Counted from the first letter of the stretch, positions 14,208 to 29,666 are shown. The stretch is DNA of 64,000 nt from Deltaproteobacteria bacterium (GCA_020848545.1 JADLHZ010000148.1:492-64491), one strand, 5' to 3'. Program-made: numbers and translations. The notes: generated by a model not told the origin, from the sequence alone.

Positions 14208-14534
14208 TCAGTCTTCAATCGAAAAGCGCACGTTACTGATCCGCTCCGATCCACACACCGGACACTTCCCGGGCGTCGTCAGCTTATCCCGCTTCTTGAA
14301 GCTGAAATCACAGTCGAGACACCGCGCCGGCTCGACGGCGACCTTCACGCCCTTCGCCTTCCCGCTCTTGATCAAGTGCTCCAAGTGCTCGGCGGCATCG
14401 CGCTCGCGGATCTTCGCACCCGTCGCCAACTCGAGCAGCGTCTTCGGCGCGCCGCCGCCGCGGAGGAGATCTTCGAGCAGCTGCCGCACGGTCTGCTTGC
14501 GTTCCTTCGGTACGGGCGCCGCTTTCACGGGCAT
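14208..14534 (-). CDS. Transcriptional regulator, winged HTH fused to a C-terminal Zn-ribbon (COG3357-like)
   Basis: 'AAEHLEHLIKSGKAKGVKVAVEPARCLDCDFSFKKRDKLTTPGKCPVCGSERI' matches the HTH-Zn-ribbon regulator pattern. The start at ATG 14534 overlaps the upstream gene by 10 nt. Confidence 0.7.
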   Translation of the reverse strand: MPVKAAPVPKERKQTVRQLLEDLLRGGGAPKTLLELATGAKIRERDAAEHLEHLIKSGKAKGVKVAVEPARCLDCDFSFKKRDKLTTPGKCPVCGSERISNVRFSIED

Positions 14535-15325
14535 TCTCCCTTCGCGAGCGCCTCGATCCGCCGCTTGAGCTCCGCGTCGCCGACGCCGGACGTCACCGAC
14601 GCTACCAACGCGGAGAACAGCTTCACTTCGAGATCGGCCTTCGCTTTCGAGAAGATGCCGCAGAGCGCCCGTTCGGTGCGCAGATTCTCCTCGCGCACGC
14701 CGGCGAGCGCCTCGGGCTCGGCGGCGGCGATCGCCAGGGCGGCGATCTTCGCGCGGGTCTTTTGCATCGTCGCGATCTCCGCTGTCGCCCGATCGACCCA
14801 GGGCGCGATCACCGTGTCGGCGTTCAGCTGCCAGTAGCGTCGCTCGATCGCCTCTTCGATCCCCATCGCCAGGTACCACGCGGGGATCTCGTCGCGCACT
14901 TCCATCTGCGCCAGCCGCTCGACGACGTCCTTGTCCTTCGTCGTCGCCAGCAGCTCCAGCAAGCGCAGCGCCGCCTTCCGCCGCACGCCTTCGTCTTCCG
15001 CCAGCGACCAGGCGACGGCGCGCAGCGAGACCAGATCTTCCTCGCGCCCGAGCTCCTTCAGCTTACCTTCGCGCTTCTCGACTTGCCGGCAGTACGTCTC
15101 GCGCGCGTGGCCAATCTGATATTCGTCGTTCATCGCCGACAGCGTGTCTGCGCCGCGCCGCTGCATCGAGTAGTCACCGCTCGCCATCGCTTCCGAGAGC
15201 AGCTTGCACGCGTCCTCGATCGGCAGTGTCTTCGCTTCCTTCAAGAGGACATCCGGCGACTTGATGACGCGCTCGTTCGTCGCTGCGCACGCCGTCACGA
15301 GAAGCAACCACCAGGCGCGCGTCAT
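14525..15325 (-). CDS. Helical lipoprotein, function unknown
   Basis: ATGA overlap with the stop of the giant gene (15322-15325). Lipobox 'LLLVTAC'. 266 aa, Glu/Ala/Leu/Arg-rich. Confidence 0.65.
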   Translation of the reverse strand: MTRAWWLLLVTACAATNERVIKSPDVLLKEAKTLPIEDACKLLSEAMASGDYSMQRRGADTLSAMNDEYQIGHARETYCRQVEKREGKLKELGREEDLVSLRAVAWSLAEDEGVRRKAALRLLELLATTKDKDVVERLAQMEVRDEIPAWYLAMGIEEAIERRYWQLNADTVIAPWVDRATAEIATMQKTRAKIAALAIAAAEPEALAGVREENLRTERALCGIFSKAKADLEVKLFSALVASVTSGVGDAELKRRIEALAKGECP

Positions 15326-18300
15326 CGCTTCAACGTCAAGCCGAGCGCCTGGCGCACGCTCGCGTAAGTGTCGCTCACCGCGAACGAGATGAGATCCATG
15401 AGGTCCGGCCGTGCCTGGATCGCCGCGATCCGTTGCGGACCGCGCGCCGGCAGCGCCGTCGTGCGCACGTGGCCGACTTGCTTCGTCGCGCTGAACGCCT
15501 GCGCCAAGTCGCCGCACATGAGGAGCGCCCAGCGATCGGCGGTGCGCTCGCCGCTCTTCACCCACGCGTCGATGTCCGCGTGCAGCGCCGGCGACGCGTA
15601 GTTGTGCGCCGCAAAGCTCGCGGCCACCTGCGCGTGCCCCGCCCACGTGTCTTCCGGCGTCACCGCCCGGAAGCGCTCGATGACGAAGCTCGCGCGATCT
15701 TCCGGCACGCCCGGCACCGGCAGGCTCGGCACGAAGCGCTTGCACAAGAGGCCGAGCAGCGTCGCCAAGTCCGCCGTCGGCAAGCGGCTCGGCAGCAAGT
15801 GGCCGAGCGCCAAGAACGCGAGCGCGCGGCAGACGACGAAGTGGGTCGCGCGCGGCGGCATGTCCGGCGTGTCTTGGCTGACGATGAGCCGCGCCGGCGC
15901 ACCGGGCTCGATGATCGCGTCACGGCCTCCGACCTTGGCGCGGTAGCTCAAGACCTCGAGCGCGCGGCCGCCCATCCGTTGCATCAAGAGCGCGAGGCGA
16001 CGGCCGAAGCCTTGGTCGAGCTGCACGAGGTCCTGCTCGCCGAGGCCCATGCGCGCGATGTCGGTGGCGTAGAGCATCTCGGCCTGCGCGGCGACCGGCC
16101 CGAAGAATTGTTGCAACGGCGTGAGCAAGCCGGCGTCGGCGATCTGGCCGAGCTCGTTCTTGCCCAGCCCGCGCGGCGGCAGCTCGGTGAGCACACGGTG
16201 CGCGGCGGTGACGAAGCGCTCGGCTTCCTCGTCGGCCGGATCGAGCGCGCGCAGCACGTCGTAAAAGAGGAAGGTGCGATCGACGTCCTGCTCTTGCCCG
16301 TAGAGGCGCGCGAGCAAGCGGTAGGGCTCGGGATCGGTCGGAGTGCGTTGCTGCAGCTCTTTGTAGAGCGCGATCGCTTCTTGCGTCTTGCCCTTTTGCG
16401 GCGCCAGGATGGCCGCGAGGGCATTGATCGGCGCGACGGCGGCCGGATCGGTGCTCTTGGCGAGACGGAAGTAGCGCTCGGCGCGCCCCGGATCGTTCAG
16501 GCGGTCGCGGGCGATGACGCCGAGGCGCACGTAGTCGTCCGCGTGCGCTTGCACGTGGGCGAGACGCTCTTCCTCCCACTCCAGGCGCTCGACGTGCTTT
16601 CCGGCGGCCTCGGCCGCGGCGATGGCGCGTTCGATCGCGTCGACGGGCAGCGCCTCGGTGCTGGCGGCGAGCTGATAAAACTCCATCACCCGCGCGGCGT
16701 CCGTGCGCGTGCGCTCTGCGGCCTCGGCGAGCGTCAAATAGAACGACTGCGCGCGCTTCTTCTGCGGCTCGACGATGACCAGCCGCTCGCCGACCATGAG
16801 CAAGCGCTCGGCGTCGCCGCCGGTCCGGTAGAGCTCGAAGAGCTGATCGAGCACGGCGATCGATTGCGGGTTCAGGTTGAACGCCGCTTCGAGCTGGCGC
16901 TGCGCTTCCTCCTGCTTGCCGAGCGTGCGCGCGAGCTCGCCGGCGGCTTGCAACGCCAGCGCGCGCTCTTGATCGTTCGCGGCGTGCGTTGCCTGAGCCG
17001 TCGTCCACAGGTGCGCGCTCTCGAGATCGCTGCGCGCGAGCGTCAACGCTGCGAGCCGCGCGTAGACCGCCGGATCGGTGACGCCGTCCGAGTGCAAGGC
17101 GGCGAGGAAGCGTTCTTCAGCGGCGCGGATGTTCGCGGCCGCGGCGTGGAACGCGCCGGCGCGATAGCGATCGAGCGAGTCGACGGGGCCGCCGCTGTCG
17201 ATCCGGTCGAGCAGCATGCGCACGACGGCGGGGTGGTTCTCGGCCTTCGCTTCGAGATCGAAGAGCGCCCAGAACGCGTCGTCGCTCCCAGCGATGAGCG
17301 GCGTGAGGAGCGAGCGCGCCTTCGTCAGATCGCCGGCGCCAATGAGCGCCTTGGCTGCGTTGACGATCCACGTGGGATCCTCGCCGGCGCCGAGCGTCGC
17401 GAGATCGTCGAGGTACGCCTTCGCTTCTTCGGAGCGCCCCGTCTCGATGAGTAAGCGCGCGCGCAGCCGTCGCGCGTCTTTGTGATCGGGCTGCAGCTTG
17501 AGGCAGGCCTCCAAGCAATCGTCCGCCCGCACGAGGTCTTTCGTCTTCTCGAGCCACAGCTTGGCCATCGCGAAGTAGGCGCGCGCACGGGTCTCGGTCC
17601 CCGCGTCGCTCTCGGCGATGCGCAAGTACACGGCCGAGAGCAGCGGGTCGTCGCCGCGGCGCTCGGCGAGGTCGGCGATGTGCACCAGCACCTTCTCGTC
17701 CAGGTCGAGCTTGTCGGTGAGCGCTTCGCGGTAGAGGGCGTAGGCGCGATCGGCCTCGTCGGCGTTCTCGAGGATCGTCGCGGCTTCGCACATCGCCTGG
17801 CCGCGCTTCTCCGGCGCCGCGCGCGAGAGCAGACCTTCGACGAGGAGGTCCACCTGCTTGCGCTCCGAGAGCGCGCGCTCGATGCGGCCACGTTCCTCCG
17901 GCGTCTTGGCCGCGTCGAACATGCGCAGGGCGAGATCGCGCGCGTCGTTCGTGTGTCCGGCGTCAATCAGGGCCCCGAGCGCGCTGAGCTGATCGTCAGC
18001 GCCGAGCTTGCCCGTCTCGATCAGGCGTCGCGTCAGCGCCACGCGCATGCTCGGATCGCCGCTGCGGTCGACGAGCGCCTGCGCCCGCTTCATCAAGAGG
18101 TTCTTGCTGTCCTCGCGCTCCTCGGCGTCGATCAACGCGAAGAGCTCGTCGAGCGCCGCTTGCAGTTGGCCAGCCCGCTCGAGCCACTCGATCAAGCGCA
18201 CGCGATCGTCGCGGGTCTTCGGGCCTTGCGCGAGCGCCTCGCGAAAGAGCGCCGCGGCTTGCGCGTAGTCGGCCTTGCTGTCGGCGACGATCTCGGCGGC

Positions 18301-29589: not shown

Positions 29590-29618
29590 GCGCGGCACTA
29601 TCGCCGAGCTCTCGACGC

Positions 29619-29645
29619 GGCGCCAAGATTTGCGCTCTTGGCGCC
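29619..29645. promoter_or_regulatory. Perfect 10-bp inverted repeat in a divergent promoter region (candidate operator)
   Basis: GGCGCCAAGA-N7-TCTTGGCGCC, inside the 77-bp gap between the beta-propeller gene (-) and the epimerase gene (+). Confidence 0.4.
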
Positions 29646-29666
29646 GCGGGCCTACCTTCAGGGCCA

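Follow-up and report, generated by a model that had tools for sequence, protein, structure and literature searches.

A seven-gene run in a deltaproteobacterial contig may combine two modules, a divergent translocon-like cassette and a giant TPR-lipoprotein pair

Introduction

A 64,000-nucleotide stretch of DNA from a Deltaproteobacteria bacterium (GCA_020848545.1, JADLHZ010000148.1:492-64491; hereafter, the window) carries seven consecutive minus-strand genes, here called g1 to g7 in the order of transcription, which an earlier note on this DNA had proposed to form a single system linking a translocator/chaperone-like pair of the kind found in type III secretion systems (T3SS) to a giant tetratricopeptide repeat (TPR) protein. 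We lean towards a different account, in which two modules with separate histories of inheritance have come to lie side by side in the 15.4-kb run, a translocon-like cassette made up of g2, g3 and g4 (module A) and a pair made up of the giant gene g5 and the lipoprotein gene g6 (module B), accompanied by g1 and g7 as accessories. The evidence that carries this reading is gene order: the two informative relatives split the run exactly at the 122-nucleotide (nt) gap between g4 and g5, and g1 and g7 are dropped as well. Because the order of the seven genes is not kept in these relatives, the single 'machine' of the earlier note is downgraded here to two independent modules. The sections below describe the gene run, the relatives and each module in turn, after which the alternative explanations are weighed.

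Results

The gene run and its limits

The GC content of the window is about 67-69%, and genes were called from codon usage and the GC content of third codon positions (GC3). The caller recovered seven consecutive minus-strand genes spanning 14208-29598, and GC3 values of 0.83-0.89 across the seven open reading frames (ORFs) give them the codon-position GC signature of real genes. The gene models, with lengths in amino acids (aa), are as follows:

28795-29589, minus strand: g1, a beta-propeller of 264 aa, secreted and built from about six repeats of 40 aa, called from a signal-peptide-like N-terminus and matches to propeller families
27064-28737, minus strand: g2, a helical protein of 557 aa that has coiled coils, two hydrophobic regions and an N-terminus that is disordered and rich in Ser, Thr and Pro
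26534-27055, minus strand: g3, a class II (SycD/LcrH-type) TPR chaperone homologue of 173 aa, 8 nt downstream of g2
25992-26537, minus strand: g4, a hydrophilic protein of 181 aa whose N-terminal half is rich in Pro and Ala and whose C-terminal half looks helical, in ATGA overlap with g3
15322-25869, minus strand: g5, a TPR/alpha-solenoid giant of 3,515 aa with many TPR family matches
14525-15325, minus strand: g6, a lipoprotein of 266 aa with a lipobox, in ATGA overlap with the giant gene
14208-14534, minus strand: g7, a PF0610-like protein of 108 aa with a winged helix and a zinc ribbon, overlapping g6 by 10 nt

The spacings in transcription order are 57, 8, -4, 122, -4 and -10 nt, which bears out the co-directional, tightly packed arrangement that the earlier note had described, ORFs and all six spacings included. 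The span that it gave, 14208-29666, holds at its lower limit but not at its upper one, where 29666 does not lie in the frame of g1 (a TTG that does is at 29667) and the ATG at 29589 opens a canonical signal peptide (MRTPALLFVFALVFSTSASA) and yields the 264-aa product. A divergent MR/MLE-family enolase gene bounds the run upstream, and downstream of g7 there are 1.2 kb (12982-14207) with no coding signal, followed by recombinase genes. Scans for promoters (none returned) and terminators (counts at chance level) were uninformative. Pfam scans of the window's 40 other predicted proteins turned up neither an sct gene nor one for a T3SS ATPase, a secretin or a needle in the 64 kb, in agreement with the statement of the earlier note that injectisome genes are absent; its domain calls for all seven proteins were also upheld in profile searches, weakly so in the case of the translocator-like protein.

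Gene order in relatives

The closest homologue of g2 is P0002 (34% identity) on contig L001, and the overlapping contig L009 extends this locus. The 90% cluster of P0002 contains IT381_05600, a protein of a metagenome-assembled genome (MAG), and that of the neighbouring chaperone contains IT381_05595. In this locus the g2 homologue is followed after 8 nt by a g3 homologue (52%), which is in ATGA overlap with a g4 homologue, and an amidase gene comes 90 nt later; a haem-oxygenase-like gene and a fatty-acid desaturase gene are upstream. No propeller was found there (g1 is absent upstream of the g2 homologue in L001), nor was a giant. The closest orthologue of the giant was found on contigs L005 and L006 of a Lake Mendota Myxococcota MAG, with TonB-dependent receptor and HEAT-like genes upstream of it and unrelated convergent genes downstream of the g6 orthologue; on these contigs there was no counterpart of g1-g4 and none of g7, including in the position downstream of the g6 orthologue in L006. 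In the sequences compared, the conserved units are g2-g3-g4 and g5-g6.

A further contig, L002, carries g1 and keeps g1-g4 together, and is not an independent test because it is from the same species and 99% identical to the window. Exact look-ups of g3 and of the proteins P0027 and P0148 recovered no contig.

Module A: the chaperone homologue g3

The chaperone identity of g3, as judged by homology, is solid, and the SycD/LcrH-like call of the earlier note passes the profile tests. The protein matches the TIGR02552 (LcrH_SycD) model at E 5.7e-14 and 52 bits over model positions 7-132 of 136, a score under the curated equivalog cut-off of 104.8 bits, and its four best PDB matches are SycD (in two sequence variants), AcrH and PcrH. 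Profile-profile tests were made with hhalign using reference loci from Yersinia pCD1, an Aeromonas plasmid, a Photobacterium plasmid and the locus of enterocyte effacement (LEE) of E. coli Sakai. The g3 family aligned with LcrH, AcrH, the Photobacterium chaperone and CesD at 98.7% probability (E 1.9e-16, 145 columns), compared with 0.5% in the control alignment with the giant's own TPRs; the match is therefore specific and not a generic TPR similarity. In addition, g3 has the size of a class II chaperone (~150-180 aa), consists only of TPRs, is homologous over its full length, and is encoded beside a hydrophobic translocator-like gene, 8 nt from g2. Chaperones of this class bind translocators in the cytoplasm and keep them stable and secretion-competent (PMC3443056).

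Module A: the translocator-like protein g2

It is plausible that g2 is a remote homologue of the SctE (YopB/EspD/SseC) major translocators. Hydropathy and an AlphaFold2 (AF2) model give the protein the architecture of SctE, with a disordered N-terminus, a coiled coil, two hydrophobic regions and a C-terminal helix, and both hydrophobic regions are conserved across the family alignment (15 members):

27592-27756, minus strand: hydrophobic region 1 of g2, aa 328-382, predicted helical hairpin (Kyte-Doolittle hydropathy; AF2 helices at 334-357 and 362-379)
27322-27471, minus strand: hydrophobic region 2 of g2, aa 423-472 (hydropathy, AF2 and family alignment)

An exhaustive HMMER search for the g2 family among 1.84 billion representatives returned 26 proteins at E<=1e-3, 16 of them at E<=1e-10. 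The SseC family PF04888 matches three of the 15 family members nearly end to end, all under its 30.2-bit cut-off: P0007 at 22.7 bits (E 8.4e-5, model positions 39-300 of 312), P0004 at 17.7 bits (E 2.8e-3) and P0006 at 13.4 bits. When the g2 family was aligned to YopB/AopB/SctE/EspD with hhalign, the score was 48.2, with 74% probability and E 2.8e-5, as against scores of 28-32 for reversed profiles, 22 for minor translocators and 11-17 for column shuffles, controls that reached at most 7% probability. The confident stretch pairs residues 470-545 of g2 with residues 324-389 of YopB in the C-terminal helical region, and at a relaxed setting the coiled coil, the hydrophobic hairpin, the second hydrophobic region and the C-terminal helix are co-linear with those of YopB.

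A word-indexed search with g2 gave a single near-identical match or fragment, a scan of a genome collection with the g2-family alignment found no relative, and a metagenome scan with g2 and P0002 found nothing. A PxLxxP class II chaperone-binding motif (PTLAVP at residue 84 of g2) was considered and rejected as evidence because it is not conserved in the g2 family.

Module A: the third cassette gene g4

The third conserved member of the cassette, g4, is an orphan by sequence comparison. Its start at 26537 is supported by N-terminal conservation with the L009 homologue, a protein of 176 aa that is encoded at the same position with the same ATGA overlap (26% identity, E 1.2e-5). Neither g4 nor, in the PDB, its family has a match (Pfam, NCBIfam and PDB were searched with g4 itself), and no hydrophobic segment was found in it. 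A role as tip, filament or minor translocator was considered and dropped, there being no similarity to LcrV, LcrG, EspA or the YopD/AopD/VopD/EspB profile.

The wider g2 family

Members of the g2 family are dispersed and multi-copy. The MAG IT381 has at least five paralogues, P0006 (locus tag IT381_13775), P0007 (IT381_01380), P0015 (IT381_28520), P0148 (IT381_05600) and P0149 (IT381_25765), and the assembly GCA_034680565.1 has at least three family members. The named relatives of g2 are 'Deltaproteobacteria bacterium' MAG proteins, and no source name places one in Myxococcus. One locus of GCA_034680565.1, which we call L008, looks from its gene content like an expanded 'translocon-like' island:

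5960-16964 of L008 (contig JAXOUH010015185.1): four LcrH/SycD-like TPR genes encoding proteins of 170, 182, 164 and 177 aa

These four tandem LcrH-like genes match TIGR02552 at E 4e-14 to 8e-26 (the relatives score 52-90 bits, under the cut-off), and interleaved with them are genes for a coiled-coil protein of 567 aa, the g2-like protein P0014 (670 aa), a protein of 302 aa that has a single hydrophobic segment, and an orphan of 1,324 aa. The chaperone gene directly upstream of that for P0014, whose product is 34% identical to g3 (TIGR02552 E 7e-23), precedes the translocator-like gene as in the canonical lcrH-yopB order, and the 302-aa protein follows. No recognisable chaperone gene adjoins the g2 paralogues at L003, L004 and L007. 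On this evidence the family looks less like a single structural translocon than like a diversified set of membrane-inserting proteins with chaperones.

Several further observations touch on this family. The MAG IT381 also has an LcrH-like TPR protein, MCC6810287.1, which clusters with proteins called 'type III secretion system low calcium response chaperone' by JGI. Two unrelated loci pair a g2-family gene with a DUF222-family gene no more than a few kb off (L003 2931-4091 and window 8901-10094), which may be a coincidence, given that genes of the latter kind may be frequent in these genomes, or a hint that the cassettes reside in mobile regions. Locus L010, from the Myxococcota MAG GCA_041389485.1, was set aside as a different subfamily, the coiled-coil proteins encoded after its LcrH-like gene being unrelated to g2. 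A 159-aa LcrH-like gene is followed there (L010 10001-15209 and 16245-18177) by genes for three hydrophilic coiled-coil orphans of 239, 428 and 759 aa, and genes for a T2SSE-type ATPase and a PEGA-domain protein lie 6 kb away; this locus may, by its layout, be another chaperone-plus-substrate arrangement outside a T3SS locus.

Module B: the giant g5, its upstream element and the lipoprotein g6

The features of module B that are not whole genes are the following:

25930-25959, minus strand: conserved 30-nt non-coding block, ~60-90 nt upstream of the giant's ATG (counterpart in L005 at about 2437-2466)
24970-25692, minus strand: conserved non-TPR N-terminal domain of g5, about aa 60-300, by conservation with the MAG orthologue
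15325-16200, minus strand: conserved non-TPR C-terminal domain of g5, aa 3224-3515 (~290 aa), by conservation with the MAG orthologue

The giant is best described, from its predicted features, as a cytoplasmic scaffold with conserved end domains that is coupled to a lipoprotein. It has no signal peptide and no transmembrane segment, and its orthologue in the Myxococcota MAG (JBIKMD01) is 68% identical overall (range 68-78%) and 82% identical in the C-terminal domain. The end domains have no Pfam or PDB match. An AF2 model of the N-terminal domain was unusable (pLDDT 40), a word-indexed search with this domain gave a single near-identical match or fragment, and a metagenome scan with the N-terminus of g5 found nothing. 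The partner g6 has the lipobox LVTAC, conserved as LVGC in its orthologue in L006; the two proteins are 47-49% identical (MAFFT, tblastn) and share the same ATGA overlap with the giant gene, and g6 has no family or PDB match. The role of the g5-g6 pair is probably that of an assembly platform.

The 30-nt block reads AAATTTGGGTC...ACCC.ATG.TA and is kept in two organisms even though their giants are only 68% identical. Its local alignment scores 23, compared with 14.8 +/- 2.1 for shuffled sequences, and 4 of 1000 shuffles reach 23; on inspection it matched neither the sigma-70 nor the sigma-54 consensus. Its presence in both organisms suggests that the giant has a regulatory element of its own inside the 122-nt gap, and the block could be, as a candidate from comparison of the two sequences, a promoter, an operator or an element of the 5' untranslated region of the giant gene.

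The flanking genes g1 and g7

The secreted propeller g1 and the PF0610-like, putative DNA-binding protein g7 are accessories not common to the relatives that could be compared. The former matches the PQQ_2, DUF4394 and Kelch families and, in the PDB, designed 'Cake' propellers at E 2e-16. The latter scores 30.1 bits against PF23470 (cut-off 26) and 26.4 bits against PF21476, under the 33-bit cut-off of that family, and matches PDB 2gmg at E 3.6e-9 over residues 18-107. It thus resembles the PF0610 family (PDB 2gmg) over its full length, and differs in its setting in that it is not kept with the g5-g6 pair in the MAG.

Other features of the window

Between the seven-gene run and the start of the window is a region of lower GC (0.63), 8141-13000, with the following features:

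8141-8212: tRNA-Cys
8901-10094: DUF222-HNH endonuclease gene
10274-11881 and 11962-12981: two tyrosine recombinase genes

By its gene content this stretch looks like an integrative element or the remnant of one, and no att repeat of the tRNA-Cys 3' end was found in the window. Elsewhere, a run of genes at 42820-49639 codes for a MoxR-type AAA ATPase, a DUF58 protein and a TgpA protein of the transglutaminase-like kind, adjoined by a gene for a 908-aa protein with no Pfam match, and a lone prepilin peptidase gene (Peptidase_A24) at 52725-53564 has no pilus or type II secretion system genes beside it in the window. Two predicted proteins have no Pfam match (56194-57585, 463 aa; 58554-60005, 483 aa), and the first of these lies where the codon-usage caller made no confident call.

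Discussion

The systems to which module A invites comparison are the T3SS translocon operons, namely lcrH-yopB-yopD of Yersinia, acrH-aopB-aopD of Aeromonas, cesD with espA-espD-espB of the E. coli LEE, and sscA-sseC-sseD of Salmonella pathogenicity island 2 (SPI-2). In these operons as in the cassette, a small all-TPR class II chaperone gene adjoins a gene for a helical protein that combines coiled coils and a C-terminal helix with two hydrophobic regions, and the likeness extends to homology over the full length of g3 and to a remote resemblance of g2 to YopB/EspD/SseC that is clearest at the C-terminal region. The cassette differs in that the translocator-like gene precedes the chaperone gene instead of following it, and in having no one-transmembrane minor translocator, its hydrophilic g4 being unrelated to YopD, EspB, LcrV, LcrG and EspA. 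It differs further in that the 64 kb hold no injectisome genes, the family matches all fall under curated cut-offs, and the g2 family, though rare overall, has several copies per genome. Our verdict, taken from sequence comparison, is that g2-g3-g4 would be an orphan, divergent, multi-copy and reordered T3SS translocator/chaperone pair with a small hydrophilic partner.

Known secretion systems of the same phylum as the cassette give this verdict a possible context, in that the needle-less T3SS* of M. xanthus and the basal 'Myxo' group of non-flagellar T3SS (NF-T3SS) are described as being without secretin, needle and translocon (PMC12075869, PMC3459982). On that description, an unlinked translocon-like cassette in the Myxococcota would be the kind of part that is 'missing' from them; the window differs from them in holding no T3SS* genes. 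In module A as we picture it, g3 would bind g2, and possibly g4, to which it is translationally coupled, in the cytoplasm, so that the hydrophobic hairpins stay soluble and export-competent, and the complex would pass to export machinery whose genes lie in another part of the genome, most plausibly a Myxococcota-type, possibly needle-less, T3SS. Once exported, g2 would insert two helical hairpins into a target membrane. In module B, a giant cytoplasmic TPR scaffold would be translationally coupled to its lipoprotein and served by a conserved upstream element of its own. A bolder proposal, in our estimate unlikely, is that cassettes of the g2-g3-g4 type would supply the unlinked 'missing translocon', or membrane-puncturing substrates, of needle-less Myxococcota T3SS-like machines; a genome would then encode several pore-formers derived from SctE, each served by an LcrH-like chaperone of its own, and the cell would export them where it touches bacterial prey, which they would permeabilise or lyse.

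A number of results weigh against the two-module reading or against the translocon-like character of module A. Each module has one comparator genome, and the contigs are short (1.7-11 kb), so that one comparator per module leaves room for a lineage-specific functional coupling of the modules in the window's own organism. In the window, all seven genes are tightly packed, with which co-transcription there is compatible, and the scans placed no terminator or promoter between g4 and g5. As for g2, the translocator-like call of the earlier note is carried weakly by hhalign and by PF04888 in relatives, but g2 itself has no match in Pfam, NCBIfam or the PDB, and its family profile has none in the PDB; the SctE link, at 74% in hhalign, is restricted under default settings to 66 columns at the C-terminus. 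Built from 15 sequences, the AF2 model of g2 is all-helical and poor (pLDDT 55), and Foldseek retrieved with it only generic coiled coils from the PDB, none at E<=1e-3. The canonical pair of two translocators is absent, because g4 has neither a hydrophobic segment nor similarity to minor translocators, and a family with at least five paralogues in one MAG is atypical for translocators. Finally, T3SS genes are absent within the 64 kb. The g2-like loci L003, L004 and L008, which were read with flanks of up to 10 kb, were likewise free of sct genes over that distance, the other contigs being too short to judge sct content.

These same results bear on whether module A depends on a T3SS at all. Its proteins could instead be multi-copy, chaperoned, alpha-helical pore-forming toxins or membrane effectors that leave the cell through a Tad/Kil-like apparatus, in outer-membrane vesicles or by lysis, or that act in the cell's own inner membrane, their likeness to SctE and LcrH reflecting ancient shared ancestry only. 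The lack of sct genes both in the window and near other family members, the dispersed paralogues of IT381 and GCA_034680565.1 and the want of a minor-translocator partner all speak for this possibility, as does the coiled-coil neighbour at L008, which matches the alpha-pore-forming toxin subunit MakE, though far under cut-off (E 1.2e-4). Nevertheless, class II chaperones are not known to serve anything other than T3SS translocators (PMC3443056), and g3 matches these chaperones specifically and over its full length. Moreover, the absence of sct genes from 64 kb is weak evidence against T3SS dependence because T3SS loci can be scattered in genomes, as in the Chlamydiales (PMC3459982). We regard a T3SS-independent module A as a serious rival, if on balance the less likely one.

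That all seven genes make up one dedicated envelope-spanning or contact-dependent system appears distinctly unlikely. Such a system would accord with the co-directional genes and their tight spacing, with the lack of a predicted terminator inside the run and with the joint retention of g1-g4 in L002. However, L002 is the same species, the split and losses seen in the two informative relatives run counter to a single unit, and the giant has its own conserved upstream block; in addition, giant-like TPR genes near the g2 paralogue on L003 show no homology to g5 at E 1e-3. A further alternative bears on module B alone and leaves the modular reading intact, namely that g5 is a scaffold of the GltI/AgmK type, belonging to the Agl-Glt gliding machinery or to a paralogous system. 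GltI (AgmK, MXAN_4863) is a giant cytoplasmic TPR scaffold of that machinery with a helical C-terminal domain (PMC11761067), and is restricted to the Myxococcales and sometimes multi-copy (PMC11761067, PMC3169522). The likeness of g5 to it, gross architecture alone being compared, is that both are cytoplasmic TPR giants (>3,500 aa) from Myxococcota lineages, and that both have a separate C-terminal domain not made of TPRs. Against this, neither the window nor the surroundings of the MAG orthologue contain glt or agl genes (gltJ, gltH, gltG etc.), as the earlier note had remarked of the neighbours in the window, and the conserved partner to which g5 is coupled is an unrelated lipoprotein, g6; we consider a GltI-type g5 unlikely.

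On the reading that we favour, of two juxtaposed modules, much of the run is new to current annotation: Pfam and NCBIfam recognise neither g2, g4 and g6 nor the end domains of the giant, and in the library of papers searched we found none linking the Myxococcota with SctE-type translocators. The giant TPR protein and its lipoprotein form a separate, uncharacterised conserved pair, possibly a scaffold like GltI. If the cassette reading is true, g2-g3-g4 would represent a small and very divergent branch of T3SS translocators and chaperones in uncultured Myxococcota-type bacteria, encoded away from any injectisome locus and in several copies per genome. A family of chaperoned pore-formers would offer a testable lead on how the needle-less T3SS of the Myxococcota deliver into prey and might breach the membranes of their targets; if the prey-puncturing proposal were true, it would extend translocon biology from the membranes of eukaryotic hosts to bacterial targets.

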